Below are positions 1 through 42,618 of a stretch of 64,000 nucleotides of DNA, in pieces. Under the pieces are notes generated by a model that worked only from the letters and a program-made list of their open reading frames with translations, was not told where the DNA came from and did no database searches. The DNA is taken from assembly GCA_030679255.1 (NCBI GenBank), contig JAUXTO010000013.1, forward strand, positions 84,383 through 148,382, given 5' to 3'. The first letter of the stretch is position 1. Each line of letters starts with the position of its first letter. Made by a program: the position numbers and the translations under genes. The stretch comes from Candidatus Gottesmanbacteria bacterium (GTDB lineage: Bacteria > Patescibacteriota > Microgenomatia > UBA10105 > UBA927).

Positions 1-517
1 AAAAATACGCAGCCCATATATTGATCGTTAATCCAATATTCGCTTCAAAGGCTATCCGCGAAAATTGTATGTGCCATGGTGAAATGGCCATAAATAATGA
101 TGCGAGAATTGGCAATGCACCTGCGATTCTGGGCGAAACTCCCATCACGGTCTCACTCTGATCTTCCCGGGCGTGACGCACTAAAATTTCTACTAAAAAA
201 TATGTCCCGAGAACTGCCAATACGCCAAATAACGCAGAAGGTAACCGAACGGCAAAAACAGAAAGTCCAAATACTGCAACCGATGGAACAGTCAGATAGA
301 CATACAATGGAGGTTTATAATCATCAAAAGACCGAAAACTTAATGGCAAAAAGGACCCATACTCATCCCGACCGGTTTTCAATATACTGTACGCGTTATA
401 CCCCAGAGACACTTCATCCCAGTCAGGACTCACCGGCACGGCACCTAACTGCCAAAATCGCAAAACGATCGCGAGAAATAAAATAATCGCAACGGGAATC
501 GCTGAATATAATCGTTT
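1..517 (-). CDS. GT-C membrane glycosyltransferase (GT39/ArnT-PMT-like), N-terminal part; gene runs off the window start
   Basis: Reverse-complement translation from the ATG at 517 gives MKRLYSAIPVAIILFLAIVLRFWQLGAVPVSPDWDEVSLGYNAYSILKTGRDEYG...FDDYKPPLYVYLTVPSVAVFGL with no stop before position 1. It is closely paralogous to the next two genes. The plus-strand ORF 97..486 is antisense to it. Confidence 0.55.
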
Positions 518-526
518 CATAGCGGA

Positions 527-2167
527 TTACTTCTCAAATAAGGTTAAAACCGGACTACCGTCTAATAATGCAATAGTTTTTATAATTTTTACTCCTGTTG
601 GAACTTGGTTGGGTGGGAAAATGTAGAGTGAACCATCATCCAGAACAGGAAGCGCACTCCCAAAAATAAACGGACCGAATCCGTCAACATGATAAAACCC
701 TGCAGCGTCAAAATATGATGAGTTCCTTTTTTGAAACTCCTCAGGATTATATGCGGTATAAAAAAGTGCATACATATACGCCCTGCCGATTGACTCACTT
801 AAATATATTTTTTTATACTTATTCGTATTGGCGTTTACATATTGAAGCGCCTGCTTGTATCCATATTGCCATTCACCGGAATATATTCTCGGGTAATGGA
901 TGTAATAATTATGAAGGTAATAGCTGACATTCCCTACATACAAAACAACAAGCAATATACTGCATAAAAGATAAACCTTCTTTTTGTGAACGTTGCTCAA
1001 AAAAACGACAATACCAAAAGCAATAAAAATATGCCAAGTCGGAAGTGAGTTGAGTATTCGAAGAGCGTGAGGTGTCTCGCGGGCAACAGCCGCAGGAATA
1101 ATCGCCGTGATAAGCCAATAGATCAAAAACCACGCCTGCGGACGGAAATATGCAAACATGGTGTACACGCCAAGCAACAAGAACGGCAAATCCACACCAT
1201 ACAGTTGGCCTACATCCTGTGTAGAGAATTTCGGATTACCATCGCCTTTTATGAACAAAAAATCCGCGGTAAAATGATCAAAATAGTGAGATAAGAAACT
1301 GCGGGCATACCCTATTCGTCTATTGTCAAAAATAGCGGATATAAACGAATGATTATCAAATGCTCTCCGGTCGTTTGCTCTCTCCACGATACTACTATCT
1401 GAAAAAATATTCACTTCGTTATACCGAAGTCTTGCTTCTTTAGAAAATAAATGCGGAAGTATGGGGAGTAGGAGAACGATCGATAGAATAATTCCTCCCA
1501 GAAAAATCTTTTTATGGACTACTACCTGTTTTCCTATGAAAACAACTACCCCGAGAGCCGCAAACGGGACGAAATACCGTGCACTGTTGAAGGTATAGAC
1601 CGCAGCGACAAACGGCAGCCAACAAACCCAGTAGAGTCTCTCCTGTCGACGAGCCGCCAAGCATAACACAGTTCCAAGGACGATAAAAAAGAGGGCAATA
1701 GTTGCCTCAAACCCGGCCCGCGACAGATTGATGTGCCAGGGAGACAACGCCAGTATCGCTGCTGCAATACTGGCAACATCAAATGACCAATGACCAATGA
1801 CCAATGGTGATATTTCCTTTTCCCGAAATAATTCTTTTACGAGAAAATACGTTAATAGGACGGTCAATGTACCAAAAATTACTGAAGGCAATCGGACGGC
1901 TAATTCGTTCAAGCCGAACAATGCGACAAAAGGAACAGTGAGATAAATCGCGAGCGGTGGTTTATAGTCGCCGTAGCCCACAAACGTATCAATCGGCAAA
2001 AACCGGCCATGTTCATCGCGACCCGTCTTAAGGATGCTATATGCATTGTATCCAATCGATACTTCATCCCAAGAGAGAGCCGGAGGATTATCCCAAACGT
2101 TATAAAAACGGAGACCAAACGCAAGACCTACAATAAAAATTAATATGATTCGTATTTTGATACTCAC
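527..2167 (-). CDS. GT-C membrane glycosyltransferase, GT39/PMT_2 (ArnT-like) family
   Basis: 546 aa polytopic membrane protein. It has the first-loop acidic motif typical of ArnT/PMT GT-C enzymes (WDEVSIGYNAYSILKTGRDEHG) followed by FDDYKPPL...LTVPFVALFGLNE. Confidence 0.75.
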   Translation of the reverse strand: MSIKIRIILIFIVGLAFGLRFYNVWDNPPALSWDEVSIGYNAYSILKTGRDEHGRFLPIDTFVGYGDYKPPLAIYLTVPFVALFGLNELAVRLPSVIFGTLTVLLTYFLVKELFREKEISPLVIGHWSFDVASIAAAILALSPWHINLSRAGFEATIALFFIVLGTVLCLAARRQERLYWVCWLPFVAAVYTFNSARYFVPFAALGVVVFIGKQVVVHKKIFLGGIILSIVLLLPILPHLFSKEARLRYNEVNIFSDSSIVERANDRRAFDNHSFISAIFDNRRIGYARSFLSHYFDHFTADFLFIKGDGNPKFSTQDVGQLYGVDLPFLLLGVYTMFAYFRPQAWFLIYWLITAIIPAAVARETPHALRILNSLPTWHIFIAFGIVVFLSNVHKKKVYLLCSILLVVLYVGNVSYYLHNYYIHYPRIYSGEWQYGYKQALQYVNANTNKYKKIYLSESIGRAYMYALFYTAYNPEEFQKRNSSYFDAAGFYHVDGFGPFIFGSALPVLDDGSLYIFPPNQVPTGVKIIKTIALLDGSPVLTLFEK

Positions 2168-3870
2168 GGTTTTGGAATAGTAATGACCGGCGCTAGTGAT
2201 ATGCTTTCAATCAGTTGAAACGCTTCGGCTCCATCTCTCCAGTTGATGCGTTCGATGAGCTTCGAATTTGGCGTGGCGATGCACCCACCCTTATTTATAT
2301 ACAAAATCCGTAAACCGGGATACTGTCGATCCATAGTTTCACGATATTTTGCGCTGGGACAGTCTAACGGAACAAATATATATTTATCATACCCTGTATA
2401 ATCATAATCTCGTGGTGATCCCAACTCTTGATAACGCGCGGGGCTATAACCCGTATAAAATAACAAATAAATATACGGACTTGAGTTCGTTTTTGTAACA
2501 ACAATTTTATCGTAATTCTGGGTACTTTGTTGCAGGGACTCTACCAACTCCTTGTAGGCAAATCCACGATAATAGGGTAAATGAAAAGGCTGATGAAAAA
2601 ACAATGCGTGGATAAAAAACGAAATATTGACCCCATAGAAAACAGCTATTCCTAAAACCACACCGACGCGAAAGTTCTTACGAACGCATGCAATAGATTG
2701 AAGGATTCCATATGCAACCAAGATGCTGCCCGGCATGATCGCAAAATAGTATCGATGAATATTTGGAGTTTCCTGACCAAATACTGCCAACCCGAGCGGC
2801 GTAAGTAATAACCATCCGAATATGAAATATCCCCACCGCTTTTTCGACTTTACTATTTGATACAAACCAATGAGCATGAATGGCAAGTCGATCAAATACA
2901 TAAATCCAATATTTGGAATTTTTTCCCGTTCCGGTTGATTCGCCTGAAAAAATAAAAAGTCAAATCCAAAATAATTAGTGTAATTACGGATCATATATCT
3001 GCCATAATCAACAATTTTATTGTGATATATACGAGTGGATAGCATGGGAGACCCCGATACTCCATCTTCCCGTATTTGTTCGTTGAGCGGCAATATCACA
3101 TCCTGAGATGAAAATATATTTACTTGCCCGAAACGGGAACCCGAAGATCCAAACATCAAATATATAGCGGTCAACAGAATAGCTATCATATATCCAGCAA
3201 AAACAAGTTTCATTTTTTTATCCAATCGCGGGAAGTAATACCAAAATAAAAGCGGAATAAATCCCAACAACAATACTCTGGGAGAGGCATAGGTGAAACA
3301 ACTTATAATCCAAAATCCTAATCCACAGACCGCCCAGATATATTTTTTGGTGTCCACATATTTTCCGGCACAATACCAGCCAACGAGCATAAAAAGCACG
3401 GCAACCAATGGATCACTTTGCGCTCTTGAAAGAAGTACGGAACTTGGTGAAAACGAAACGATCGCTGCGGTGATCAATGAAAGAAGTACATGTTGTGTAA
3501 GTGCAAACGTCACAACTGCGGATACCAACACAATCAATATTCCTGCGACAGCAGAAGGCATTCTGACGGAAAATTCATTGAGTCCAAATAGTGCGACAAA
3601 TGGAACAGTAAGATAGGAATAGATAGCTCCCTTATAGTCATCAAACGACCTGAGCACAAGTGGGATTGGCTTGCCGTATTCGTCTTTTCCGGTTTTCAGA
3701 AGTGAATACGCATTGTATCCAAAAGCAGCCTCGTCCGCGTGAAATCCTTCCGGAATCTTATCGATTTTCCATATACGGATGATAGCCCCAGACAAGAGAA
3801 TAAAAAAAAGTATAACAAATATCTGCGTTCGTTTCATGGCTAGTATCGTAGTATTTTTTGGACTCTTCAA
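2164..3870 (-). CDS. GT-C membrane glycosyltransferase, GT39/PMT_2 (ArnT-like) family paralog
   Basis: 568 aa with HADEAAFGYNAYSLLKTGKDEYG...FDDYKG...LTVPFVALFGLNEFSVRMPSAV. The stop overlaps the start of the previous gene (ATGA-type coupling). The start may be the internal Met at about 3837. Confidence 0.75.
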   Translation of the reverse strand: MKSPKNTTILAMKRTQIFVILFFILLSGAIIRIWKIDKIPEGFHADEAAFGYNAYSLLKTGKDEYGKPIPLVLRSFDDYKGAIYSYLTVPFVALFGLNEFSVRMPSAVAGILIVLVSAVVTFALTQHVLLSLITAAIVSFSPSSVLLSRAQSDPLVAVLFMLVGWYCAGKYVDTKKYIWAVCGLGFWIISCFTYASPRVLLLGFIPLLFWYYFPRLDKKMKLVFAGYMIAILLTAIYLMFGSSGSRFGQVNIFSSQDVILPLNEQIREDGVSGSPMLSTRIYHNKIVDYGRYMIRNYTNYFGFDFLFFQANQPEREKIPNIGFMYLIDLPFMLIGLYQIVKSKKRWGYFIFGWLLLTPLGLAVFGQETPNIHRYYFAIMPGSILVAYGILQSIACVRKNFRVGVVLGIAVFYGVNISFFIHALFFHQPFHLPYYRGFAYKELVESLQQSTQNYDKIVVTKTNSSPYIYLLFYTGYSPARYQELGSPRDYDYTGYDKYIFVPLDCPSAKYRETMDRQYPGLRILYINKGGCIATPNSKLIERINWRDGAEAFQLIESISLAPVITIPKP

Positions 3871-3898: not shown

Positions 3899-5626
3899 AT
3901 GGGCAAATCTCTATTATTATATCTGACAGCAGTTACCCTATTTACCCTGGTTTTATTTTGGCCGTTTACCCTCCATATCCACGACTCGGTCGTCAATGTC
4001 ATCGACCCTTTATTTTACGCATGGAATTTATCGCATAATGCTGACCATTGGTTTAATGGTTTTGATGCACTCGTCAATACAAATATTTTTTATCCTCTGA
4101 CCAACACCATTGCGTACTCAGATACTCTTTGGGGCCAAAGTGTATTTATAAACCCGATTATATGGATTACCCATAACCCGATCTTGGCACAAAACATAGC
4201 TGTCCTTCTCTCATTCCCACTTTCAGCTCTGGCTATGTTCCTGCTGTCGTATTATTGCACGCGAAATAAAATAGCATCCTTTCTATCCGGAGTATTTTAT
4301 GCTTTTTCATACCCACGGCTTTCTCAAGTCGGACATCTGCCCATGATCAGCAGTCAATGGCTACCCCTCTATATACTCTATCTGTTTAAATTTTTGGGTG
4401 ACCGTACCCGGAAAAATTTCCTTCTCGTATGCATCTGGTATATTCTTTCGATAACATCAAGCATCTATTTTGGTATTTTTCTCATACCGGTAACCGTGAT
4501 CATGATCGTTGCGGACGTTATAAAACATTTGTATCGTCATACCGTATACCAATATAAAAATACAGCACTAACCATCCTTCCTGTGATCGTGCCGTTTATC
4601 ATTGTGGTAGGCATCGTATTATTCCCGTATATCCGCCTAAAAGCAGAGAATCCTGATATAAAACGCACCATAGACGACGTGACGCATTTACGGGCCAACA
4701 TAACGGATTATTTCAGCGTGCTTCCCACTAGCCTCAATATCTATAAGCTTCCGACTAACACGAACGAACACGTTCTCTTCCCTACGATCACGGTACTTCT
4801 CCTTGCTGTCTTTGGTCTCGTTACATCGTATAAACGCAATAGATACACGGTGAGCATAATCGTACTTATTGCATTCATGTCTTTTGTCCTGTCTCTTGGA
4901 AATGAACAGAGATTTACTATCGGATCATATCTCACTGACTCTATAAAGCTACCTTATTATTACCTCTATACCATATTCCCAATGTTTCAAATGATCCGCG
5001 TACCTGCCCGATTTGGAATATTTGTCATTATTGCTCTCAGTGTACTTGCGGCATGGGGCATCGATCATGTCCTGAAAAAAAGTAAATCATTATGGATGAT
5101 GGGAATATTTCTTTGTCTGTTTATTTTTGAAGTCTGGCAAACCACCACTCCATTCGTCACTATCCCTCTTGAGCAATCTATTCCAGACATCTACATGTGG
5201 ATACGCGACCAACCTGAACCAATGATACTCGCCGAGCTTCCCGTATCTCTATCCTTCTACTACGGGAATAACATGGAAGATCAATTATATAGATCCTATA
5301 CTGCGCTCGGGAAGCCGGATGTCTATGCGTTAGAAACGTATCGGATATACTTCTCATCTTTTCACAAAAAACGCATGATAAATGGCTATAGCGGCTTCTC
5401 GCCGGAAAGTTATAATAGAATAGTGGACACTCTGGAAAACTTCCCTTCTGAAGTCTCGATAAAAGCCCTGCAGGACATCGGTGTGACGCATGCAGTCCTC
5501 CATATTCGGCAATATGAAGAGAAAAAAAGAAATGAAATAATACAAGCTCTGACTAACGCATCATTGTTGACCCTCACCTATTCTCACAACGATGATCTAG
5601 TCTATACAATTAATAAGAAGCAATAA
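3899..5626 (+). CDS. polytopic membrane protein of unknown function (possible glycosyltransferase accessory protein or GT-C-like)
   Basis: Long ORF with many hydrophobic segments. The likely start is MGKSLLLYLTAV at 3899; the 3779 start would overlap the divergent gene. No family is confidently recognised. Confidence 0.45.
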   Translation: MGKSLLLYLTAVTLFTLVLFWPFTLHIHDSVVNVIDPLFYAWNLSHNADHWFNGFDALVNTNIFYPLTNTIAYSDTLWGQSVFINPIIWITHNPILAQNIAVLLSFPLSALAMFLLSYYCTRNKIASFLSGVFYAFSYPRLSQVGHLPMISSQWLPLYILYLFKFLGDRTRKNFLLVCIWYILSITSSIYFGIFLIPVTVIMIVADVIKHLYRHTVYQYKNTALTILPVIVPFIIVVGIVLFPYIRLKAENPDIKRTIDDVTHLRANITDYFSVLPTSLNIYKLPTNTNEHVLFPTITVLLLAVFGLVTSYKRNRYTVSIIVLIAFMSFVLSLGNEQRFTIGSYLTDSIKLPYYYLYTIFPMFQMIRVPARFGIFVIIALSVLAAWGIDHVLKKSKSLWMMGIFLCLFIFEVWQTTTPFVTIPLEQSIPDIYMWIRDQPEPMILAELPVSLSFYYGNNMEDQLYRSYTALGKPDVYALETYRIYFSSFHKKRMINGYSGFSPESYNRIVDTLENFPSEVSIKALQDIGVTHAVLHIRQYEEKKRNEIIQALTNASLLTLTYSHNDDLVYTINKKQ

Positions 5627-5631: not shown

Positions 5632-8058
5632 ATGAAAAGACTATTACTCCTCTACAAAAACCCTTTCTGTATTCTTGGGTTTATTACCATAATATTTTTC
5701 TGGCAAATATTTTTCAAAGGATATGTTCCTTTTCCCGGTGATTTACTGCTTTCGGAATATAATCCCTGGCGCCAGAGCTCCTACTTCGGATACGCTCCTG
5801 GAGCAGTACCGAATAAAGCTCAATATTTTGACACAATCCGGGAATTCTACCCATGGTTGGACTTCACCGTTGGCGAAATAAAAAAAGGAAACATGCCACT
5901 TTGGAATCCTTATAACTTCTCCGGACAACCGCATATAGCCAATTTCCTTACCGCAGTTTTCTACCCTCTGAATTTCATTTATTTTACGATCGGGACCATC
6001 CGTGGATACTCTCTCATGATTGTGCTTGCCCCATTCCTAACGTCCATATTTATGTATTTGTATGCCAAAAAAATCGGAATCTCTCCAATCGGATCTTTCT
6101 TTTCTGCATTGATACTCGCGTACTCTTCGTATATGGTTGATTGGCTGGAATTCGGGGTGGTAGGACATACTCTTGCCTGGTTTCCGCTGGCGCTCTACGC
6201 GATAGAACATTTACGGACCGGTCATAGCACGAAACACTCTCTTATCTTGACGTTTGCGTTGACCGCGTCATTATTTGCCGGATATCCGATGGATTTTATC
6301 TTCTATTTCAGTTTTGTTTTACTCTATCTTGTTTATATTGCCTTTATAGATTCCAAAATCAAGAAACAGCCGTTTACCTTGCCTTTTACCCGTGTCGCAC
6401 CATGCGTAGCATTCTCTTTACTCATCGGGAGCATACAGCTATTCCCCGCTATAGCGTACTACCTCAAGTCAGCCCGGACATCTGTACCCTACGATTTTTT
6501 GATAAATAATATGCTCGTACAACCATATCAGCTGATTATGACCGTGATACCTGATTATTTCGGTAATCCCGTCACAAAAAACTATTGGCTTACGACATCG
6601 TATGTAAGCCTGACGTTATCGTTCGGACTCGCGCCATTACTCTTTGCGTCCATTTTTATCTTCAACCTGCATAAAAAGGAGCGTGTCATGTATCATCGGG
6701 AACATCTGTTTATTGCCGCACTCCTCACCATCTATCTCCTCATCGTAAGAACGCCGCTCACCGAACTATTGTATAGAATGAATATTCCGCTCTTTTCTAC
6801 AAGCTCACCGACCCATCTGTTAACGATCGCCATCTTCATCTGGAGCATTTTAGCTGGACGGGGGTTGGATCTCTATCTGAAAAACAAAGAAAAGCTATAC
6901 ATGCTTATCCCCACCATTCTCGCATTTTGCCTCGCGTGGGCAGGGTTACTCTTTGTGCCGTATGCATATCAAACAGTAGCACTACGTAACAGCGTCTATT
7001 CTACCGGAATTTTTATGACACTATTGGTGTTATTTACTCTCGGATCGATAAAAATGAACGTAAAAAAATACATAATTATACTTATCATCCTCGTGACCAT
7101 CATTGAACGGTTTGTCGCATTTGGAAAATTCAATCCGTTTGTACCCAAAGCGTACGTGTACCCGCAATCAGAAATTTTGACCCACCTTCAATCCATATCC
7201 GGCATCGATAGATTTTATGGATACGGGACAGCAAAGATTGAATCCAATATCAATACGCGGTACAGTCTCCATTCAACAGATGGTTTTGGTGCGATAAACT
7301 ATGCTTTCTATAACGGTTTTATCCGCGCATCCCAAGACGGAAAAATCGTAAAAACGTTTACCCATATAAATCGTAGTGTCGCGGAAATTGCCACGGGGTA
7401 TGGGGCAGAGGATCTTCCGCATAATCTCTACAGGTTACGGATGATGGACGCTCTCGGTGTGAAATATATCCTTGACCGCGTCGAAAATCCAAAAGACGAC
7501 GCTACATTTCCGCGCGACCGGTTCGCGCGGATCTGGGACAATACCGACGGATGGGCAATCTATAAAAATATGTATGCCGCTCCGAGATACTTTTTAACAG
7601 ATAAAATACAATATTACAGTACTGATGCAGAATTCGAAAATATATTTTTTGATCCGAGCTTTAATCCGAGAGACACGGTAGTGTTAGAAAAAAAAGCAGA
7701 ACCACTCATTCACGTTCTTCCGGCAAAGGAAAAAAACGTTGAGCTTGTACGGTATGAACCCAACACCATACAATTCCGTACCAAATCCGATACAGCGCAA
7801 ATTCTCTATCTTTCAGATACGTACGATAAAGGATGGAAATCATTTATTGACGGCAAACAGACCGGAATGTTGAAAGCAAATTACGCATTACGGGCGATAA
7901 ATATCCCGGCCGGAACGCACACTGTTGTCATGAACTACGCACCGGACGAGTTCACATACGGCATAATCGTATCACTCATAGGATTCATACTTTTCACAAT
8001 TTTTTTAACGGTACGGGGCGGCCAAAACGTTAAAGCGCGCCACTCCCGCCTGTGTTGA
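5632..8058 (+). CDS. YfhO-family membrane protein (GT-C-like glycosyltransferase acting on lipid-linked sugars)
   Basis: 808 aa with the hallmark PLWNPYNFSGQPHIANFLTAVFYPLNFIYF segment of the YfhO family and many transmembrane segments. Confidence 0.7.
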   Translation: MKRLLLLYKNPFCILGFITIIFFWQIFFKGYVPFPGDLLLSEYNPWRQSSYFGYAPGAVPNKAQYFDTIREFYPWLDFTVGEIKKGNMPLWNPYNFSGQPHIANFLTAVFYPLNFIYFTIGTIRGYSLMIVLAPFLTSIFMYLYAKKIGISPIGSFFSALILAYSSYMVDWLEFGVVGHTLAWFPLALYAIEHLRTGHSTKHSLILTFALTASLFAGYPMDFIFYFSFVLLYLVYIAFIDSKIKKQPFTLPFTRVAPCVAFSLLIGSIQLFPAIAYYLKSARTSVPYDFLINNMLVQPYQLIMTVIPDYFGNPVTKNYWLTTSYVSLTLSFGLAPLLFASIFIFNLHKKERVMYHREHLFIAALLTIYLLIVRTPLTELLYRMNIPLFSTSSPTHLLTIAIFIWSILAGRGLDLYLKNKEKLYMLIPTILAFCLAWAGLLFVPYAYQTVALRNSVYSTGIFMTLLVLFTLGSIKMNVKKYIIILIILVTIIERFVAFGKFNPFVPKAYVYPQSEILTHLQSISGIDRFYGYGTAKIESNINTRYSLHSTDGFGAINYAFYNGFIRASQDGKIVKTFTHINRSVAEIATGYGAEDLPHNLYRLRMMDALGVKYILDRVENPKDDATFPRDRFARIWDNTDGWAIYKNMYAAPRYFLTDKIQYYSTDAEFENIFFDPSFNPRDTVVLEKKAEPLIHVLPAKEKNVELVRYEPNTIQFRTKSDTAQILYLSDTYDKGWKSFIDGKQTGMLKANYALRAINIPAGTHTVVMNYAPDEFTYGIIVSLIGFILFTIFLTVRGGQNVKARHSRLC

Positions 8059-34536: not shown

Positions 34537-34538
34537 AC

Positions 34539-36170
34539 CTATAAGTGTATCAGTTTATGAATGGTGACAAATGATGTCTTCCAGGTGCCGGATATTGTGG
34601 CACTCCCGAATCCGGCAATTTCCCATAACGGGTGACCGAGCGGTTTGCAATCTGGCTCCTCACAAATCACAATCAACTGGTCGGTCACAGTTTTTCGCTC
34701 CGGATCTGCAAACTCCGGCTTGATCGTAACCGGAGGATTTCCCCAAATATCAAAAAAATATCGGTATACATGATCAGAATTACCTTGAGTGATCAGGGCA
34801 AAATTAAATGGCTTCTGACCGGTTTTATCAATTGCAACTTGTGCAATGCCGCGGGCTTGAGCCAGTTGATTATTCGGGGCAAATTGGAACGGCTGACCCT
34901 GCCAATTCCACCATAATAATAAAGCCGTCACGCCCACAGAAATTGCCATTCCGATGACATGAATTTGTTTGAGACGATAGAGAATAATACCGGTTACCAA
35001 AAACGGCAGGGTAAACCAAATGCCGAAGTAATAATCGTAAATTGCCCGTTTATAAAATCCAAATAAGACGGCTACGACAAAGCCCCAAAGCAGGAGAAGC
35101 AACGATGACCGTCGCCATCGGGCCGTATTGTTGATGGGATTGCAACCTATAACTAACAGGCCAATTCCAACCGTGAGAATGCCCACTATTCCCCAATGCC
35201 ACAACCCCTGCTGCCAAGACGGAATATCCGACCATATTTCCGGCTGCGGAAACCGGAGCACGAGTCTTCCGACTAACCGATAAAGAATGTCCTGGATAAT
35301 AATCCGGTATTTTTCTGGAGCGAGCCCTGTGTCGTTTCCCGCAAGAACAAATTGTATAATGGATTGTGTATTCGGAAATCCATGACGCAGTTCAAACAGG
35401 AGAAACGGCCCGAAACCCACCAGAAAACCCATCATACCAAGAATTCCCGTTTTGATCCGTTCCCGTACTTTGGTATACACGAGAACCCAAATGGCCGCAA
35501 CCGGAAAAAGAAATAAAAACAAGTAGTGAAGCTGCAAGCCTATTCCCATACATATCCCGGCACCAACTATATTCCTCAATCTTCCGTTTTCGGCAAATCT
35601 CCACAGAAGAAAAATCATCAGTAATGAAAAAAACGGCACGATATTGGGATTCCATGATGAACGGGAGTATGCGATGACCACCGGCGAAAGCGCATAGAGC
35701 GCGCTTGCCACGATTCCCACCCATGAACCAAACATATCCCGACCGCTCCGGTAGAGAAGATAGACGGTTGCGACACCAAATAACGCAACCATCACAGCAG
35801 GTCCCGTGGGGTCGAGTCTCCATGCCCAAAGAAAGGGCAGCATAAAATAATAATAGATTGGCCCCAAGAAAAATCCTCCCACGGATGCGGTAGGCCCGAG
35901 AAGCGTCCATTTATGATCAACGATCATCTGTTTGACGACCAGTGCGTCACGTCCTTCATCGCCCAAAAACGTCATATAGCCGGATATATTGTAAAGGCGG
36001 AGGTATGCTGCAACGAAAAGAATGACTACTATCAACAACTCAGACCAAGGAACTTTCCAACGTTTTGACTTTTGACCTTTGACTTTCCCGCCTGCAACGC
36101 TTTGCTTAGCATTGCGGGCAGGTGACTTTATTTTTTCCATATGACTTTTGAATACATTGTGTAATTCCAA
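34539..36170 (-). CDS. GT-C membrane glycosyltransferase (ArnT/PMT_2-like) with the repeat element in its 5' region
   Basis: LGDEGRDALVVKQM acidic loop motif followed by multiple transmembrane segments. The N-terminal residues KSPARNAKQSVAGGKVKGQKSKR are encoded by the 67-nt repeat at 36063-36129. An alternative TTG start downstream of the repeat (LLIVVILF) is possible. Confidence 0.6.
   Translation of the reverse strand: MELHNVFKSHMEKIKSPARNAKQSVAGGKVKGQKSKRWKVPWSELLIVVILFVAAYLRLYNISGYMTFLGDEGRDALVVKQMIVDHKWTLLGPTASVGGFFLGPIYYYFMLPFLWAWRLDPTGPAVMVALFGVATVYLLYRSGRDMFGSWVGIVASALYALSPVVIAYSRSSWNPNIVPFFSLLMIFLLWRFAENGRLRNIVGAGICMGIGLQLHYLFLFLFPVAAIWVLVYTKVRERIKTGILGMMGFLVGFGPFLLFELRHGFPNTQSIIQFVLAGNDTGLAPEKYRIIIQDILYRLVGRLVLRFPQPEIWSDIPSWQQGLWHWGIVGILTVGIGLLVIGCNPINNTARWRRSSLLLLLWGFVVAVLFGFYKRAIYDYYFGIWFTLPFLVTGIILYRLKQIHVIGMAISVGVTALLLWWNWQGQPFQFAPNNQLAQARGIAQVAIDKTGQKPFNFALITQGNSDHVYRYFFDIWGNPPVTIKPEFADPERKTVTDQLIVICEEPDCKPLGHPLWEIAGFGSATISGTWKTSFVTIHKLIHL
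36063..36129. repeat. 67-nt heptamer/palindromic repeat element, copy B
   Basis: TTTTGACTTTTGACCTTTGACTTTCCCGCCTGCAACGCTTTGCTTAGCATTGCGGGCAGGTGACTTT: TTTTGAC heptamers, an imperfect stem-loop (CCCGCCTGC...GCGGGCAGG) and a GTGACTTT terminus. It begins inside the stop codon of the upstream GT2-GtrA gene and encodes the N-terminal segment of the next GT-C gene. Confidence 0.7.
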
Positions 36171-37237
36171 AGGAGTCCGATTCCTACGCCTATAAGGTAA
36201 AACCAGCGATAAAAGGAAACCCCAAATACCATGGATCCTGTCGCAACGGCACCTGACTGAATAAGCACGGCACCGAAAGACGTTGCATTAAATTGCAGAA
36301 ATTTTCTTATCGCATCAAATCCACGGACTTTTCTCGATCCAAATGTCCAGGAATTATTCAAAATGAAATTAGAAATGATGGCAAATTCTGCCCCGAAGCT
36401 ACTTCCTATGACAGGATGAAATCCGAAGTGAACGAAAACCTCCAACATGGCCGTATTAATGATAAAACCTATACTCCCCACCACCAGAAATTTACCAAAC
36501 GATCCGGTGACTATTTGCGTGAAGCGCTGACGCGTGATATACCCGAGTACATCACGAATATATTGAGATGGTGCTATTTTAGAATGTCCAAACTTTCTAT
36601 CCGTAAACCGTATCGGGACTTCAGTAATTTTTGCACCACGAAGTATCGATTTATGGAGATATGCGATTTGAAATACATATCCCTGGTATTGAGATAAATC
36701 CGAACGGCTATATCGCGCTATTTTTTCTGTATACGCCCGATACCCACCCGTCCAATCATGGACGTTCGTGTATCCCAGACCAAATCGTACAATTCCGTTG
36801 CCGACAATGCTAAACAGTTTCCTGTGCCATCCCCAGTTGTCCGGTATTGATCCGCCCTCTATATACCGGCTGCCGACGGCAAAATCTGCGCCGCTATTGA
36901 TAGCTTTTATAAAATGGGGTAGCGATACGGGGTCGTGAGAGAGATCTGCATCCATCTGTACGATAATCTTTGCATGTAAAACATCAAGTGCGTACGCAAT
37001 CGCATACAACAGTGCACTCCCCAATCCTTCTTTTTCTTTTGTCAAAAGTATGACATTTGGATGTTTGCTTCTATATTGCTTCACCACTTCTGACGTGCCA
37101 TCCGGAGATTTATCATCGACAACGAGAATGGTCAGACTATGCCCGCGGATATTGACCCATACGTCAAAAATGCTATCCAAAAGGGTTTTAATATTTTCCC
37201 GCTCATTGTACGTCGGAAGTATGACGACGGTGTTCAT
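36128..37237 (-). CDS. GT2 polyprenyl-phosphate sugar synthase fused to a C-terminal GtrA-like 4-TM domain
   Basis: VVILPTYNEREN...VVDDKSPDGT...DADLSHDP...GSRY...TGGYRAY are Ppm1/ArnC-type motifs, followed by four transmembrane segments resembling GtrA. The start is MNTVVIL. Confidence 0.7.
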   Translation of the reverse strand: MNTVVILPTYNERENIKTLLDSIFDVWVNIRGHSLTILVVDDKSPDGTSEVVKQYRSKHPNVILLTKEKEGLGSALLYAIAYALDVLHAKIIVQMDADLSHDPVSLPHFIKAINSGADFAVGSRYIEGGSIPDNWGWHRKLFSIVGNGIVRFGLGYTNVHDWTGGYRAYTEKIARYSRSDLSQYQGYVFQIAYLHKSILRGAKITEVPIRFTDRKFGHSKIAPSQYIRDVLGYITRQRFTQIVTGSFGKFLVVGSIGFIINTAMLEVFVHFGFHPVIGSSFGAEFAIISNFILNNSWTFGSRKVRGFDAIRKFLQFNATSFGAVLIQSGAVATGSMVFGVSFYRWFYLIGVGIGLLWNYTMYSKVIWKK

Positions 37238-37244
37238 GGAGCTA

Positions 37245-38201
37245 TTATACCCGTTCACGCCAGTAGTTGAGAAGGTCCTCCATCGTTTTTTCAAAAGGAA
37301 TCTCCGGCTTCCAACCCGTTTTCTTTACAAACTTCGTGTTATCACCGATCAAAACCGGTACATCGGACGGCCGCATACGGGAAGCATCTTCTTTTACGTC
37401 TACGTTCACCTTGGAGAAGGAAAGAAGCATCTTGAGCAAATCTCCGATCCTTATGGCCGTCCCTACTGCGATGTTATAGACGTCCCCAGGATCACATTTT
37501 TCCACGGCAAGAACATACGCCCGGACCATATCCCGTACATCAGTATAATCGCGCTTGGCGTCAAGATTCCCGACACGTATGACCGGTTCCTGTTTACCCT
37601 TTTCGATAAGCGCTATTTGCTTGGCAAAATTAGATTCGGCAAATGTTTCCCCACGTCGCGGGCCCGTATGGTTAAACCCACGTGTCCGTATAATCCGTAC
37701 TTTGTAGGACTGGAAATACTGGTATCCCAAATAGTCCATCGCAACTTTAGATACGGCATACGGAGACAGCGGACGCAACGGATTGGATTCTTTTATAGGA
37801 AGCTCATTTTCGTGTACCAACCCGTATTCCTCCGATGAACACGCAATTTGTATAACTGAATCTATTCCAGCCTGTCGAACCGCTTCAAATAGATTTGCGC
37901 TTCCCACAATATTGACTTCCAAAGTCACAGACGGAGAAACCCATGAAGTTGGCACAAAAGATTGTGCCGCTAAATGAAAAATATAATCCGGTTTTATACG
38001 GGAAAGAGTTGTATAAAGACTATGTGTATCCAAAAGATCGGCGTCTTCCAGATGAAGTTTGTTGATAATAGATTCTATATGATCGCGCTTTGTTCTTGGA
38101 CGGCACATGCCATAGACTTCATACCCCTGTGACAATAATAACTCTGCAAGATGACTTCCTACAAAACCAGCGATTCCGGTAATTAATGCTTTTTTTGCCA
38201 T
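37245..38201 (-). CDS. NAD-dependent GDP-sugar dehydratase/reductase (GDP-mannose 4,6-dehydratase / Rmd-like)
   Basis: ALITGIAGFVGSHL Rossmann motif, YAVSKV (YxxxK), and FNHTGPRRGETF resembling the GMD motif FNHESPRRGETF. Confidence 0.6.
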   Translation of the reverse strand: MAKKALITGIAGFVGSHLAELLLSQGYEVYGMCRPRTKRDHIESIINKLHLEDADLLDTHSLYTTLSRIKPDYIFHLAAQSFVPTSWVSPSVTLEVNIVGSANLFEAVRQAGIDSVIQIACSSEEYGLVHENELPIKESNPLRPLSPYAVSKVAMDYLGYQYFQSYKVRIIRTRGFNHTGPRRGETFAESNFAKQIALIEKGKQEPVIRVGNLDAKRDYTDVRDMVRAYVLAVEKCDPGDVYNIAVGTAIRIGDLLKMLLSFSKVNVDVKEDASRMRPSDVPVLIGDNTKFVKKTGWKPEIPFEKTMEDLLNYWRERV

Positions 38202-38231
38202 ATATCCTCCCCTTGCCCGCCTAAGACCGCT

Positions 38232-38270: not shown

Positions 38271-38284
38271 CTAGGTCAGGAGGG

Positions 38285-39583
38285 TTACATTCTCCCTACA
38301 CCATAATACATGAAGCCAAGTTGTTTTACACTATTCGGATCGTACACATTTCGTCCGTCAAACATAACGCGTTCTTTGAGTTCCTTTGCGAGTCTCACCA
38401 AATCCAATTGCCGGAACTCATTCCATTCGGTCACCACAATCACGGCATCTGCGCCCCGGGCTGCATCATAGGCGTCTTTTGCATAAAAAACGCCTGTCGG
38501 TAGTAATGGTTTGGCATTTTCTATAGCCACCGGATCAAAAACGCGGATACGAGCACCCATTTGCGTGAGTTTTCCGATAATTTCGACCGATGGCGCTGAT
38601 CGCATGTCATCCGTATCCGGTTTGAATGAAAGACCCAAAACCGCAAACAACTTCCCCTTTACATCACCATGAAAATGGCGGGATATTTTATCAATAAACC
38701 GGCTCGCGGCTTCCTTATTCACTTCTTCGACCGCGGTAAGAATTGAAAAATTGTACCCGTATTCTTTTGCGATTGCAATAAGCGCGCTTACATCTTTTGG
38801 AAAACAGCTTCCGCCATATCCCACACCCGGATAGAGAAAGCTTCTTCCGAGACGTTTATCAAGCCCCACTCCCTCAAGAACTTTTTGGGCATCCGCACCA
38901 ACCTTTTCAGAAAGAAACGCAATCGCATTGGCAAAAGATATTTTTGCAGAAAGGAGGGAATTGGATGCATATTTGATAAGCTCAGCGGTCTCCAGATTAC
39001 AAAGAACTTTTTTTCCATCAATGGATTTATGAAGATCGAGAAGTAATTCTTCGGCGCGTTTTGATGTCGTTCCAATGACGACGCGATCAGGATGAAGGGT
39101 ATCACGGATCGCCGTCCCCTCCCGTAAAAATTCAGGAACTGATGCGATGGAGAATGATGATTCTCCTGATTTTGTACGTTCAAGAATTTCAGAAACTTTT
39201 TTATTTGTCCCGGGTGGCACGGTGCTCTTCGTGACGACCACCTTATACCCAACGAGCGCTTTTCCGACACTTTCAGCAGCCGCAAACACACTGGTGAGAT
39301 CCGCCTCACCGGATTTTTTCGATGGCGTACCGACACAAATGAAAATAATTTCTGACGGGGCAACCGCTTGGCCGTAATCCAGGGTAAACAGCAAGCGGCC
39401 GGCAACAACATTTCTTTTCACTAATTCCTCAAGTCCCGGTTCATAAAATGGTGCTTTCCCTTTTTTAAGGTTTTCAATTTTTTCTCTCGTCCGTCCCACG
39501 ACCCATACGGTATTCCCCAAATCCGCAAATACTGCGGCAGTTACTAACCCTACATACCCATGACCGATAAATGAAATTGTCAT
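38285..39583 (-). CDS. UDP-glucose/GDP-mannose dehydrogenase family (likely UDP-glucose 6-dehydrogenase)
   Basis: ISFIGHGYVGLVTAAVFADLG N-terminal NAD fold, GGSCFPKD catalytic Cys motif, 432 aa. Confidence 0.8.
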   Translation of the reverse strand: MTISFIGHGYVGLVTAAVFADLGNTVWVVGRTREKIENLKKGKAPFYEPGLEELVKRNVVAGRLLFTLDYGQAVAPSEIIFICVGTPSKKSGEADLTSVFAAAESVGKALVGYKVVVTKSTVPPGTNKKVSEILERTKSGESSFSIASVPEFLREGTAIRDTLHPDRVVIGTTSKRAEELLLDLHKSIDGKKVLCNLETAELIKYASNSLLSAKISFANAIAFLSEKVGADAQKVLEGVGLDKRLGRSFLYPGVGYGGSCFPKDVSALIAIAKEYGYNFSILTAVEEVNKEAASRFIDKISRHFHGDVKGKLFAVLGLSFKPDTDDMRSAPSVEIIGKLTQMGARIRVFDPVAIENAKPLLPTGVFYAKDAYDAARGADAVIVVTEWNEFRQLDLVRLAKELKERVMFDGRNVYDPNSVKQLGFMYYGVGRM

Positions 39584-40433
39584 ACAAGGAACCGTACCCC
39601 TTCATGAAAGGGGATCATTGATAGACCCAAAGATTCTATTTTTAAAGTTTGTAAAACCGCGCGGAGAGGTCGCGGAGCACGATTCTTATAATACAATGCC
39701 CATGACGTCGGCGCAATTGTTGATTTATCCAAATGCAGGGTGTCTGCAATGAGGATTGCGGCTTCAAAGGGAGAAAGTGCCTGACTCCCCACCGCGTGAT
39801 AGATGCCGGATGCGACGCTTTTTACTAACGCATGGATTACCCCGACAATATCGTCAATATACGTAGGCGTGATGCGCTGATCAGTCACCGCAACCACCGT
39901 CTCACCTGCTGCAAGTTGATCTTTGATACGCTGAACAAAATCCGGTCGGACGCTCGGTGCTGATCCATAGGGAAATGCAATACGCAAGATAAGACCGCTC
40001 TCCCCAAGTCGAGCGACCAATTTTTCTCCTTCATATTTCGTGGTGGCATACCAACTCATAGGACTGGGGGTGCTCTCTTCGGTGTATGGACCAGTATTGC
40101 CGTCAAATACGAAATCCGTCGAAAGATACAACACACGCTTCTTAAATTTCTGGGCGGCTTCAACAATATTCCGGGTTCCCCCGACGTTTACCCGCCAGGT
40201 ATTACTAGCCTCCCCAAGATCACGCTCTTTTTCACTTGCGTCCAAATCCGTACGAGCGGCAAAATGAAATATCCAGGAGGCATCCGACGAGGCAATTTTT
40301 TCCATCACGACATCTTTTTGTGTAATATCAATACCGGTTTCGAGGCTTAAATTTTCAAACTGGAATTCAGGCGTCAGAAGTTTTGTCACCCGAGAACCCA
40401 CAAGTCCTGAGAGTCCGGTGCCAATGATATTCA
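39580..40433 (-). CDS. rfbD: dTDP-4-dehydrorhamnose reductase
   Basis: RmlD-like SDR with YATTKYEGEK (YxxxK). The probable GTG start overlaps the rfbB TGA stop (GTGA), which implies translational coupling. Confidence 0.7.
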
Positions 40434-41414
40434 CGGCGTTCCCCCATATTTTGCGCGTCTCCACCACGATTCATGGTTTCTATACCAATCTATGGTGTCT
40501 TGTAACCTTGACTCAAATTTTTGTAATGGCCTCCAACCAAGCTCCGTTTCAATCTTTGTCCAATCGATCGCATACCGCCGGTCATGTCCGGGCCGGTCGG
40601 CAACAAATTCAATCATGTCTTCGCGGCCCCCCATGAAATCAAGAATTTTCTTGACAACCGTTATGTTGTCCATGTCATTCGTGCCTCCGCCGATACAGTA
40701 CGTCTCACCTATTGTTCCACGGGTCAATACTGCGTCAATTGCCCGGCAGTGATCTTCAACATACAGCCAATCCCGCACATGAAGCCCATCACCGTATACC
40801 GGTACATTCTTACCCTCCAAAATATTTGTAATGACCAGTGGTATAAGTTTTTCCGGAAAATGGAACGGTCCGAAATTATTTGAACAGTTGGTAATCGTCA
40901 CTGGTAACCCGTATGTTTCGTGATATGCACGCACTAAATGATCCGAACTTGCTTTACTTGCAGAATACGGACTTCTGGGGTCATATGGTGTTCGTTCAGT
41001 AAATTTACTCAAAGTATCAAGTTCAAGCGATCCGAACACCTCATCTGTTGATATGTGATGGAATCGGGAAATCTTTGCCTTTGTTGCTGCCTCTAGGAGA
41101 GTGTAGGTTCCCATAATGTTCGTCGTAATAAATGGAGCCGGAGCACGTATTGACCGGTCTACGTGACTTTCCGCCGCAAAATGTACAACGACATCCACGC
41201 CCAACAATGCTTTTTTCACTATATCCGGATCACATATATTTCCATGAATAAATGTATAGTTGGTATTGTCTTTAATTTCGGTTAGATTTTCCAGATTTCC
41301 GGCGTACGTTAGGGCATCAAGATTGACCACGCTATCCGTTTGATGCTCACGCAGCCAGTAAAGGATAAAATTTGATCCGATGAAGCCGGCGCCGCCGGTG
41401 ACTAATAATTTCAT
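40431..41414 (-). CDS. rfbB: dTDP-glucose 4,6-dehydratase
   Basis: [16 protein letters not shown]...[15 protein letters not shown]...[18 protein letters not shown] are canonical RmlB motifs. Confidence 0.85.
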
Positions 41415-41884
41415 GTAATATTTTTATTGGTGATCGTCACGCCTCGTACCCAATCGTAGCCAATGAGATCATCATCGTAAGGAATACGGCCCTCTTCGTC
41501 TTTAGAATAGATGCCGCTGGTAACGTACACTAATTCCGCCGGACCAGTGATCACCTTTAACCCATGGGCAACCCCTGCCGGAATCTTAAGAATGATATCC
41601 TGTCCCCCGTCGCCCAACGTATATTCATTGAGCTCTTTGTATGTGGTGCTCGCCGATCTATAGTCATAAAGAGCAACCTTTATTGTGCCTGTAACGATAT
41701 ACCACCAATCAATCTGTGTTTTATGCACATGCCATGCCTTCACTACTCCCGTCACCATAGATGAACGGGAAAGTTGTCCGAATCCTTCAGAAAATATCGG
41801 ATCGCTCATCCGTATCAGTTCTTCAAAAAAACCCCGCTCATCAGGGAGACGGATGAGATTTTTTGTTTGTGTGCCGTCAATCAT
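41411..41884 (-). CDS. rfbC: dTDP-4-dehydrorhamnose 3,5-epimerase-like cupin
   Basis: [28 protein letters not shown]...[14 protein letters not shown] aligns with the RmlC His-Lys/Asp active-site region. It is short, at 157 aa. Confidence 0.6.
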
Positions 41885-42618
41885 AACTTTCCCTCTTTGA
41901 CCATAGCCGCTACCCGGGAGTTGGCATTGAGGAGTTCGTCATAGGAAGTTCCCGCATCGATCCACCAATCGATGATTTCGCAGGTGAGCTCTCCGGATCT
42001 CAAATAATAATTATTCAAATCCGTCACTTCCAATTCTCCGCGGCCGGAAGGCGATAAATGCTTAATACAGGCAAATACGGTATGGTCATAGATATATATT
42101 CCGGTCTGTGCGATATCAGATTTGGGATGTTCCGGTTTTTCCTCAATAGATAAGACTTTTCCGTTTTTATCGACTTCGATAACCCCATATTGTTTCGATT
42201 CTGTATCCTTATGGACTCCAAATACCATGCCGCCTTTGCTTTTTACTTCAAATTTTCGCCGTGCTTCTAAAAGATTGAAATTAAAAATATTATCTCCCAA
42301 CAGGACAAGAATTGGCTCATCGTGGGCAAACTCCTCAGCAAGGGCAATGGCATCAGCAATACCACCTTTAGGGTTCTGCTGTACCGCATAATAAAGTTTA
42401 AGCTGGAAATCCTCTCCATTTTTTAAAAGATTAGCAAAATGTCCTGCATGGTCGCCCGAAGTCGTCAGTAGGACTTCTTTGATGCCTGCTTTCCGCATCG
42501 CTTCCAGAGGATAATAAATCATGGGCTTGTTGTAGATAGGCAACAAGTGTTTATTGGTAACGAGCGTAAGGGGACGAAGTCTTGTCGCGAGTCCACCGGC
42601 TAAAATGACACCTTTCAT
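41881..42618 (-). CDS. rfbA: glucose-1-phosphate thymidylyltransferase (short form)
   Basis: MKGVILAGGLATRLRPLTLVTNKHLLPIYNKPMIYYPL sugar-nucleotidyltransferase signature. Adjacent to rfbBCD. Confidence 0.65.
   Translation of the reverse strand: MKGVILAGGLATRLRPLTLVTNKHLLPIYNKPMIYYPLEAMRKAGIKEVLLTTSGDHAGHFANLLKNGEDFQLKLYYAVQQNPKGGIADAIALAEEFAHDEPILVLLGDNIFNFNLLEARRKFEVKSKGGMVFGVHKDTESKQYGVIEVDKNGKVLSIEEKPEHPKSDIAQTGIYIYDHTVFACIKHLSPSGRGELEVTDLNNYYLRSGELTCEIIDWWIDAGTSYDELLNANSRVAAMVKEGKL

Follow-up and report, generated by a model that had tools for sequence, protein, structure and literature searches.

A contiguous island of GT-C-fold glycosyltransferase genes in Candidatus Gottesmanbacteria and a proposed role in envelope glycan assembly

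Bacteria of the Candidate Phyla Radiation (CPR, Patescibacteria) are ultra-small, mostly uncultivated episymbionts whose surface is the interface with their hosts and phages, and the surface chemistry of these organisms is essentially uncharted. We asked what may be built by an island of genes for membrane glycosyltransferases (GTs) of the GT-C fold in such an organism. The island lies in the first 42,618 bases of a 64,000-nucleotide stretch of DNA from a Candidatus Gottesmanbacteria assembly, which we call the window. A preliminary description of these letters had read it as a co-directional surface-glycosylation locus of 42.6 kb with at least 13 GT-C proteins in three families. Our analysis confirms and enlarges the GT-C cluster, and it points to an unusually elaborate sugar coat.

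Extent, host and conservation of the island

Open reading frames (ORFs) were assigned to families by Pfam scans with gathering cut-offs, and paralogy was judged by BLAST. Window positions 1-42618 contain 34 tightly packed ORFs at a coding density of 99.5% (Table 1, genes g0 to g33). We found that 15 of them encode GT-C-fold proteins, which cover 25,638 of the 42,618 bases (60%). These belong to at least four unrelated branches, namely PMT_2-like proteins (7), a supergroup of YfhO, PTPS and DUF6311 proteins (6), an MptA_B/GT87 protein (1) and the family of g5 (1). The earlier count was right and understated, and its three families become at least four, g5 having been overlooked. No GT-C genes were found among the approximately 24 ORFs scanned between 42.9 and 64 kb, and the remainder of the window is housekeeping (a Sua5 fusion, TsaE, FtsEX, a PcsB-like protein, release factor 2, Nramp, RuvCAB, DsbA, MacAB and the SecA C-terminus).

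From rmlA down to g7 (11841-42618) all 27 genes run strictly in one direction, the largest gap between them being 83 bp. The single orientation described earlier holds for this part; to its left three genes (g3, g4 and g6) lie on the plus strand. Nor does the cluster begin at position 1, as had been described. A Logan contig (L033, sample SRR13727518) matches 15,626 bases of the window with 0 mismatches and reaches 6.1 kb further left. There it carries the remainder of g0 (556 amino acids, aa, at full length), a second PMT_2 protein (513 aa), a 576-aa PTPS_related protein and a 548-aa protein for which blastp on a sister-species locus (L016) suggests a likeness to g22. With these three additional GT-C genes the cluster has at least 18 contiguous GT-C genes. 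The island is longer than 48 kb and the window holds its larger part. A second contig (L001) matches window positions 28285-41403 without mismatch, and the zero-mismatch matches of both contigs indicate that the assembly of the window is sound. No repeat was found in the locus, nor any tRNA, Rfam hit, integrase or compositional break, and the lack of the latter four led us to reject a mobile-element origin.

The host is a Candidatus Gottesmanbacteria organism, a CPR bacterium from groundwater with a tiny genome. Named homologues come from Candidatus Gottesmanbacteria or the 'Patescibacteria group', and g24 has a counterpart (P0258), 100% identical where the two align (68% of g24), on a 307-kb contig of a metagenome-assembled genome (MAG) of Candidatus Gottesmanbacteria. 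The lineage is Patescibacteria group, Microgenomates group, Candidatus Gottesmaniibacteriota. In a genome of about 1 Mb, an island of more than 48 kb would take up several per cent. Its GT-C transferases outnumber the whole complement of most free-living bacteria. As had been suggested, such a density is unusual, and the genome is indeed of the CPR type.

The island is conserved in relatives. A scan of the genome collection for the g3 family gave 14 loci of Gottesmanbacteria type, and in these g3 always lies inside the same GT-C run. The conserved order of the left core is MptA_B-like, GT2, PTPS-like, PMT_2, g0-like, g1, (g2), g3, YfhO, (g5), g6, g7. To the left of the stretch covered by L033 the cluster goes on in relatives with a GT2 gene, an MptA_B-like gene and a PMT_2-like gene. 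The gene order of the right half is exactly matched in the sister species (about 80-93% identity), the shared order being CAP, rmlA, rmlC, rmlB, rmlD, ugd, Rmd-like, DPMS, PMT_2, GT2, MptA_B, PMT_2, g22, PTPS, GT2, Wzx, GT2, g17, GT2 and GT2. When 50 PMT-like sequences were clustered, one-per-genome orthologue groups were obtained for g1, g2, g6 and g0/g7 over about 13 genomes (g1 in 13), and paralogues within a genome share 20-53% identity by BLAST. The one-per-genome groups together with the low identity of the paralogues indicate old duplications kept under selection and not a recent amplification. We rejected recent tandem amplification or misassembly on this low identity, on the orthologues kept across genomes and on the two independent contigs with 0 mismatches. 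Several records titled 'uncultured Gammaproteobacteria' hold clearly Gottesmanbacteria-like loci, and their titles look mislabelled.

Families, folds and predicted catalytic loops of the GT-C proteins

Seven PMT-like proteins had been proposed, and all seven were supported by profile hidden Markov models or by paralogy, with an Asp-Glu (D-E) motif in loop 1. Five of them (g1, g2, g7, g23 and g26) score above the PMT_2 or PMT gathering cut-off; g0 and g6 are just under the PMT_2 cut-off and are clear paralogues of g7 and g1, respectively. No MIR domain appeared in the Pfam scan of these seven proteins, in which no search was aimed at MIR. The three YfhO proteins (g4, g10 and g12) score above the cut-off at 70.8-80.3 bits, and all carry the PLWNPYxFSGxP signature that had been reported for them. 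Of the three proteins placed with PTPS, one of them tentatively, g21 matches the Pfam family above its cut-off; g22 has no Pfam match and is a paralogue of g21 over the whole length. The tentative one, g3, is a DUF6311 protein and is kin to PTPS at the profile level only. The GT87-like character of g24 was confirmed: all 120 homologues listed carry PF26314, many also carry PF09594 (GT87), and one is named 'glycosyltransferase 87 family protein'.

In the local Pfam copy g3, g22 and g24 had no match even at E up to 10, and g5 had only one weak sub-threshold match, to DUF6608. The assignments of g3 and g24 rest on precomputed PF19830 and PF26314 matches and on homologues. Since the homologues of g3, which carry PF19830 (DUF6311), are 575 aa long and start at the corresponding place, we set the start of g3 at 3899. 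Using hhalign, a profile of 42 g3 homologues matched the YfhO profile with 98.8% probability (E 8e-17) and the PTPS profile with 96.9%. The PTPS and YfhO profiles matched one another with 99.4%, and the PMT_2 groups were linked to one another.

Sequence searches with g3, g5 and the g24 profile against PDB chains gave nothing meaningful, so that fold comparison was needed for g3 and g5. The AlphaFold2 models of both proteins, with a predicted local distance difference test score of 91.7 for g3 and 90 for g5, are helical bundles. For g3 the high-probability Foldseek matches are GT-C proteins only (STT3, DPY19, AglB, PglB, ArnT and ALG12; E down to 1e-8), and g5 matched DPY19, STT3, AglB, PglB and AftA. 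Both proteins consist of a GT-C domain of the type with 13 transmembrane (TM) segments and an AglB-like C-terminal globular domain. The WWDYG-type motif of STT3/PglB/AglB, searched for with the regular expression W[WYF]D[YWF][GA], was found in none of the 15 GT-C proteins, which indicates that none of them is a canonical oligosaccharyltransferase (OST). This reading was rejected for g3 and g5 as they lack the motif, and the protein N-glycosylation that had been suggested found no support. DUF6311 and the g5 family, the latter with 1,582 representatives at 50% identity (E up to 0.001), are two GT-C families without any characterised member. Members of DUF6311 also occur, at 23-32% identity, in MAGs of Chloroflexota, Acidobacteriota, Armatimonadota, Thermodesulfovibrionia and Desulfobulbaceae, and around these distant loci (L015, L017-L027 and L029-L031) no window-like GT-C genes were detectable by BLAST.

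Hydropathy gave 8-13 TM segments in all 14 full-length GT-C candidates and 4 in the truncated g0. In every GT-C family but that of g5 a short basic N-terminal tail and TM1 lead into a loop 37-100 residues long; at its N terminus g5 carries three additional helices. Acidic residues are conserved in these loops: D34-E35 in at least 85% of 50 PMT-like sequences, D67 in YfhO proteins and D31 in PTPS proteins. Invariant residues are D36/D75 in 42 DUF6311 sequences, D147 in 45 sequences of the g5 family and D120 in 7 MptA_B sequences. The basic tails and the positive-inside rule predict that the conserved acids sit in long extracytoplasmic loops, which would be the canonical GT-C arrangement, and by the same rule the D147 loop of g5 probably faces outward as well. 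The placement in GT-C, YfhO and PTPS-type families that the preliminary description had foreseen was obtained by profile searches, paralogy and fold, and its loop acids proved to be conserved in loops that are predicted to lie outside. The large repertoire of outer-face glycosylation reactions proposed there appears to be a sound reading of the profile, paralogy, fold and loop evidence.

Candidate donors and acceptor, and competing explanations

Three genes had been described as Dpm1-type synthases (g20, g25 and g27), and solved polyprenyl-phosphate glycosyltransferases (DPMS and ArnC) are indeed their top matches. The product of g27 aligns with Pyrococcus furiosus DPMS (5mlz) over its full length (residues 14-375), including the membrane domain. 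That of g20 aligns with the same structure over residues 12-242, and ArnC is its next best PDB match. In NCBIfam its closest entries are PgfS, ArnC and dolichyl-P-hexose transferase, none of them scoring above the cut-off, and neither g20 nor g25 has TM segments. All three are best matched as DPMS/GtrB/ArnC-type polyprenyl-phosphate sugar synthases. In transcription order g27 comes directly before g26, g25 precedes g24, g23, g22 and g21, and g20 lies beside the Wzx gene g19; this adjacency gives indirect support to the idea that the GT-Cs may use polyprenyl-phosphate-linked donors. The four remaining GT2 proteins (g9, g15, g16 and g18) resemble ordinary cytoplasmic transferases.

All four RmlABCD families are present and adjacent at 39580-42618 (NTP_transferase, dTDP_sugar_isom, a dehydratase-type extended short-chain dehydrogenase/reductase (SDR) and RmlD_sub_bind). 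The top PDB match of g28 (2pk3) is a GDP-6-deoxy-D-lyxo-4-hexulose reductase. The possibility that g28, which adjoins ugd, is a UDP-xylose synthase (UXS) was rejected on the match to the Rmd type (4.9e-84 versus 8.5e-21 to UXS). We thus recovered the Wzx, the four further GT2, the GT4, the methyltransferase, the GMD-like enzyme (here Rmd-like), ugd and rmlABCD of the preliminary description. It had listed two SDRs, and we found a single classical one, g14; g13 is a Bro-N/phrog_15286 protein. The deoxyhexose, hexuronate and methylated sugars that it assigned to outer-face reactions are represented by rml, ugd and methyltransferase genes, but dTDP-rhamnose, UDP-glucuronate and the methyltransferase at least as plausibly serve cytoplasmic GT-A/GT-B steps.

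Two small membrane proteins outside the GT-C run were also seen. The head of the operon, immediately before rmlA, is occupied by an ORF of about 84 aa (about 81 aa from the first Met) with three predicted TM segments. An 82-aa gene with a weak DUF5656 match occupies the matching position in the sister species, and the predicted product may act as a small membrane accessory in the manner of GacJ or GtrA. At 57.5 kb, beside a GNAT acetyltransferase, is a half-size EamA (DMT) transporter of 156 aa. ArnE/F-type flippases for polyprenyl-P-sugars are of a similar type, and a tie of this half-transporter to the island is possible.

Systems of a comparable kind are known from Gram-positive bacteria (CsbB/GtcA/YfhO; GacI/GacJ/GacK/GacL; Csd and Gts). 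In these three-part monoderm systems a GT-A enzyme makes a C55-P-sugar, a GtrA- or Wzx-type flippase turns it over, and a PMT_2 or YfhO GT-C acts on teichoic acids or rhamnose polysaccharides outside the membrane (PMC8035078). The PMT_2 proteins GacL, CsdD/F and GtsC, as well as YfhO, glycosylate wall polysaccharides and teichoic acids. The Wzx-type GacK flips C55-P-GlcNAc made by a soluble GT-A; such soluble GT-A and Wzx-type variants, and an association with rhamnose polysaccharide genes, are thus established for these systems (PMC8035078). They have one GT-C per synthase and occur as one to three scattered systems per genome, whereas the island combines 15-18 GT-Cs of four or more branches with only three synthases in one contiguous conserved CPR locus.

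The reading that we prefer, at about even probability, is that the island encodes a hugely expanded multi-component transmembrane glycosylation system for a complex, probably rhamnose-containing envelope glycan that is assembled or branched outside the membrane. In the cytoplasm, RmlABCD, Ugd and the Rmd-like reductase would supply dTDP-L-rhamnose, UDP-glucuronate and a GDP-6-deoxyhexose. The four GT2, the GT4 and the methyltransferase would build or modify a lipid-linked glycan, and g20, g25 and g27 would load polyprenyl phosphate with single sugars. The Wzx-type g19 and the GtrA-like membrane domain of g27 would bring the lipid-linked sugars to the outer face, where at least 15 GT-Cs (18 with the left flank) would draw sugars from these few lipid carriers, each adding its sugar at a site or in a linkage of its own on an acceptor outside the cytoplasm. 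The main acceptor that we infer is a highly branched rhamnose-containing wall glycopolymer or lipoglycan, largely made or decorated outside the membrane. We favour a polymer because each donor synthase is shared by about six GT-Cs and every paralogue has been retained as an orthologue in its own right. Some PMT-like paralogues may additionally O-glycosylate Thr/Pro-rich surface proteins, and the polymer and protein readings are not mutually exclusive. The size of the island and the number of its GT-Cs argue that an elaborate glycan, built outside the cytoplasm, has a central place in these organisms.

Such a logic would be like that of mycobacterial arabinan and lipoarabinomannan assembly and of side-chain addition to streptococcal rhamnose polysaccharide. 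In mycobacteria one decaprenyl-P-arabinose donor is common to several GT-Cs (PMC11127046). The arabinogalactan and lipoarabinomannan machinery (EmbA/B/C, AftA-D, MptA/B/C and PimE) likewise has many linkage-specific GT-Cs, few lipid-monophosphate donors (decaprenyl-P-arabinose and polyprenyl-P-mannose) and a branched polymer outside the membrane. The island also has an MptA_B/GT87-type member, and g5 resembles AftA in fold. In contrast, the island lacks Emb/Aft sequence homologues, DPPR synthase and DprE genes, and the type of cell envelope differs. In mycobacteria the GT-C genes are scattered across a genome larger than 4 Mb and do not form one operon-like block.

Several points weigh against the polymer proposal. 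Among the window ORFs scanned there is no priming phosphoglycosyltransferase, Wzy polymerase, O-antigen-type ligase, LCP ligase or ABC exporter, so that the backbone pathway is incomplete there and the acceptor polymer is hypothetical, which applies to all polymer models. Nor do the scanned window ORFs describe a Wzx/Wzy-dependent pathway, since Wzx (g19) is present and no Wzy, O-antigen ligase, Bac_transf or WecA/MraY-type family is. All three synthases score 26-62 bits against NCBIfam equivalog cut-offs of 325-529 (ArnC, PgfS, dolichyl-P-hexose transferase, AglJ and PpgS), far below the curated thresholds for a specific sugar. Topology was judged only by hydropathy and the positive-inside heuristic, and the organism is uncultivated. 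What was observed is the gene content, the family or fold of the products, the conserved loop acids, the synteny and the taxon; donor chemistry, topology, flippase roles and acceptor are deduced from these. Finally, PMT/GT39 relatives are protein O-mannosyltransferases in actinobacteria and C. bescii (PMC6151902), and a membrane-anchored protein with a long Thr-Pro linker, which would fit a protein acceptor, lies 3 kb from the locus.

These last two observations belong to the main alternative, which we consider somewhat unlikely, namely that the island serves mainly protein O-glycosylation. The PMT-like and perhaps other GT-C paralogues would each recognise different surface proteins (Thr/Pro-rich linkers, pilins or S-layer) and would use polyprenyl-phosphate donors, as do actinobacterial Pmt and Caldicellulosiruptor GT39. 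Consistent with this, seven paralogues match PMT/PMT_2 and have the loop-1 D-E motif, and their size of 504-574 aa is near that of the 556-aa C. bescii GT39 that acts on alternating Thr-Pro linkers (PMC6151902). A secreted lamin-tail-domain (LTD) protein, anchored in the membrane at its C terminus and with a long linker rich in Thr, Pro and Ser (a run of Thr-Pro repeats), is a plausible substrate, and a CAP-domain protein that is also C-terminally anchored is syntenic with rmlA and the locus in the sister species. Comparison with the GT39 O-mannosyltransferases (yeast Pmt1/2/4, M. tuberculosis Pmt and C. bescii Cbes_1864) gave shared PMT/PMT_2 matches, loop-1 Asp-Glu motif and similar size. 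The island differs from them in its low scores (26-37 bits for PMT, which is modest), in having seven paralogues instead of one with no MIR seen, and in protein acceptors that are only candidates. Most characterised monoderm PMT_2 and YfhO GT-Cs act on glycopolymers (PMC8035078). The MptA_B/GT87 family, judged from its name only, acts on lipoglycans, and polysaccharide loci typically contain companion genes of the kinds seen here (GT2/GT4, Wzx and rml); these points favour the envelope glycan over protein.

The part of the island closest to lipid A modification by ArnC and ArnT (GT2 and GT83) is g25, which best matches ArnC, and its PMT_2 paralogues, which are of the ArnT fold family. Unlike that system the island has no ArnA/B/D, and the EamA half-transporter lies outside the locus. 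Lipid A synthesis is not known from CPR bacteria.

A different organisation, which we regard as improbable, would be a set of independent, exchangeable three-component decoration modules of the Gtr kind that diversify the surface for phage evasion or host recognition and do not form one assembly line. Some variability is in keeping with such modules: many loci lack g2, several have another gene or a highly divergent version in place of g5, a g6 homologue (41% identity) is on the opposite strand in one relative (L002), and a phage-family Bro-N gene lies inside the operon. Gtr-type modules are classic phage cargo (PMC11127046). However, three synthases for 15-18 GT-Cs depart from the 1:1 pairing of characterised systems (PMC8035078), the right-half order is identical in the sister species, the orthologue groups are one per genome across about 13 genomes, and no integrase, repeat or compositional break is present. 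These features fit one conserved system better than exchangeable modules.

A bolder extension of the envelope-glycan reading, which we consider decidedly unlikely, is that Gottesmanbacteria and perhaps many Microgenomates build their main envelope glycan almost wholly on the outer face with about 20 GT-Cs, and that the DUF6311 and g5 families, OST-like in architecture and without WWDYG, are a new class of en-bloc or chain-transferring enzymes. If true, this would be a CPR-specific, mycobacteria-like extracytoplasmic glycan assembly line that evolved independently and possibly underlies host-cell attachment.

Very improbable is a model in which g3, g5 or both are divergent OST-like enzymes that pass a whole lipid-linked oligosaccharide, once Wzx has flipped it, to protein or wall in one step, with the other GT-Cs trimming or extending it: the GT66 enzymes STT3/AglB/PglB are their top fold and best architecture matches, and Wzx and cytoplasmic GT2/GT4 are present, but the WWDYG-type motif is absent, no sequence match to PDB OSTs was found, TM-scores are only about 0.4-0.55, g3 is homologous to the monosaccharide-transferring YfhO (PMC8035078), and the window has no priming transferase.

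In the literature we found no description of such GT-C super-clusters in CPR; only brief references to multiple copies of dolichol-phosphate mannosyltransferases, in Peregrinibacteria and Saccharibacteria, were found. Apart from the two uncharacterised GT-C families, the island is made of components of known kinds. Its novelty lies in scale and organisation: at least 18 GT-C genes of four or more branches lie together in a single conserved, operon-like block of a small CPR genome. The locus supplies three donor synthases, orthologue-resolved GT-C sets for structure-function work and these two uncharacterised families.

Gene inventory and neighbouring genes

Table 1. Genes of the island and neighbouring features in the window, with the evidence for each assignment.
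Gene	Position	Strand	Assignment	Evidence and remarks
g0	2..520	-	PMT_2/ArnT-like GT-C, N-terminal 173 aa of 556	PMT_2 23 bits, sub-threshold (truncated); BLAST to g7 1e-51; WDEV motif in loop 1
g0, full gene	L033 4952-6622			remainder left of window
g1	527..2167	-	PMT_2/PMT GT-C, 546 aa	PMT_2 38.6, PMT 37.3 bits; D34-E35 conserved
g2	2164..3870	-	PMT-like GT-C, 568 aa	PMT 29.6 bits; BLAST to g7 2e-70; orthologues in 4 relatives
g3	3899..5626	+	DUF6311-family GT-C, 575 aa	PF19830 on homologues; longest ORF from 3779
g4	5632..8058	+	YfhO GT-C, 808 aa	PF09586 70.8 bits; PLWNPYNFSGQP motif
g5	8005..10074	-	GT-C-fold, un-named family, 689 aa, AglB-like C-terminal domain	fold comparison
g6	10120..11844	+	divergent PMT_2-like GT-C, 574 aa	PMT_2 24.7 vs cut-off 26.1 bits; BLAST to g1 6e-22; GDE motif; orthologue group of its own
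g7	11841..13544	-	PMT_2/PMT GT-C	PMT_2 50.8 bits; called as 555 aa, probable start ~13508 (gene call in L033)
g8	13516..14391	-	class I S-adenosylmethionine-dependent methyltransferase	Methyltransf_23 102 bits
g9	14407..15414	-	GT2	Glycos_transf_2 82.9 bits; called as 302 aa, probable start ~15315; not polyprenyl-P synthase type
g10	15305..17590	-	YfhO GT-C, 761 aa	PF09586 80.3 bits
g11	17587..18696	-	GT4 (GT-B) glycosyltransferase	Glycos_transf_1 69.6, Glyco_transf_4 32.5 bits
g12	18633..20936	-	YfhO GT-C, 767 aa	PF09586 77.7 bits
g13	20940..21773	-	Bro-N domain protein, 277 aa	Bro-N 41 bits; phrog_15286 full length, 1.5e-93
g14	21770..22507	-	classical short-chain dehydrogenase	adh_short 137 bits
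g15	22517..23275	-	GT2	Glycos_transf_2 65.5 bits
g16	23260..24198	-	GT2, rhamnosyltransferase-like	Glycos_transf_2 79.9 bits; TIGR01556 72.8 bits, below cut-off
g17	24195..24824	-	209-aa protein, one N-terminal TM helix	66% identical orthologue, same position in L034 (sister species)
g18	24808..25731	-	GT2	Glycos_transf_2 67.6 bits
g19	25719..27179	-	Wzx-type (MOP superfamily) lipid-linked sugar flippase	Polysacc_synt_3 171.7, Polysacc_synt 82.7 bits; 11 predicted TM helices
g20	27169..27933	-	soluble GT2, polyprenyl-phosphate sugar synthase type	top PDB match P. furiosus DPMS 5mlz 1e-12
g21	27887..29551	-	PTPS_related GT-C, 554 aa	PF10131 40.6 vs cut-off 26.4 bits
g22	29548..31071	-	g21 paralogue (PTPS_related-like GT-C), 507 aa	BLAST to g21 2e-26 over 553 aa; 9 TM helices
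g23	31068..32582	-	PMT_2 GT-C, 504 aa	PMT_2 44.9 bits; TDE motif
g24	32619..33809	-	MptA_B/GT87-type GT-C, 396 aa	PF26314 precomputed for identical protein; invariant D120 in SYDIFNY
g25	33784..34536	-	soluble GT2, polyprenyl-phosphate sugar synthase type	top PDB matches ArnC 6e-15, DPMS 2e-10, GtrB 1e-8
g26	34539..36170	-	PMT_2 GT-C, called as 533 aa	PMT_2 52.5 bits; weak match to Agl23 TIGR03663; GDE motif
g27	36128..37294	-	DPMS-type polyprenyl-phosphate sugar synthase with fused GtrA-like 4-TM domain, called as 369 aa	Glycos_transf_2 90, GtrA_DPMS_TM 61 bits; 5mlz 1.3e-41
g28	37245..38201	-	extended SDR, GDP-4-keto-6-deoxy-mannose reductase (Rmd)/GMD-like	PDB 2pk3 4.9e-84; GDP_Man_Dehyd 281 bits
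g29	38285..39583	-	UDP-glucose 6-dehydrogenase (ugd)	all three UDPG_MGDP_dh domains
g30	39580..40467	-	rmlD	RmlD_sub_bind 176.7 bits
g31	40431..41414	-	rmlB-type 4,6-dehydratase	GDP_Man_Dehyd 282, Epimerase 230 bits; located between rmlC and rmlD
g32	41411..41884	-	rmlC	dTDP_sugar_isom 66.5 bits
g33	41881..42618	-	rmlA	NTP_transferase 197 bits
	42619..42888	-	predicted 3-TM protein	see text
	42889..43794		CAP-domain protein	see text
	43840..45272	-	t6A genes and VanZ-like gene	see text
	45604..46596	-	LTD protein	see text
	51447..52511	-	release factor 2 (prfB)	see text
	57499..58453	+	half-size EamA transporter and GNAT acetyltransferase	see text
	58400..59100	-	two small ORFs	see text

Two products of the operon stand apart from glycosylation families. 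The Bro-N gene g13 is spaced 3 and -4 bp from its neighbours inside the packed operon and its GC content is unremarkable; it may be a domesticated phage regulator or a phage-derived insertion, possibly with a regulatory role. The product of g17 had no Pfam, NCBIfam or PHROG match.

Outside the island, fusion or compaction is seen in the t6A genes, where a protein of 302 aa joins a Sua5/YrdC domain to a short TsaD/TsaB-family segment (residues 229-282), and TsaE, which overlaps a VanZ-like gene, comes next. The only sizeable gap without a long ORF in the window contains two small ORFs (98 and 95 aa) whose translations, judged by eye, look like a ribbon-helix-helix antitoxin and a RelE/ParE-type toxin. 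The ORF of release factor 2 has a TTG start and shares about 41 bp with the 3' end of the Nramp gene.

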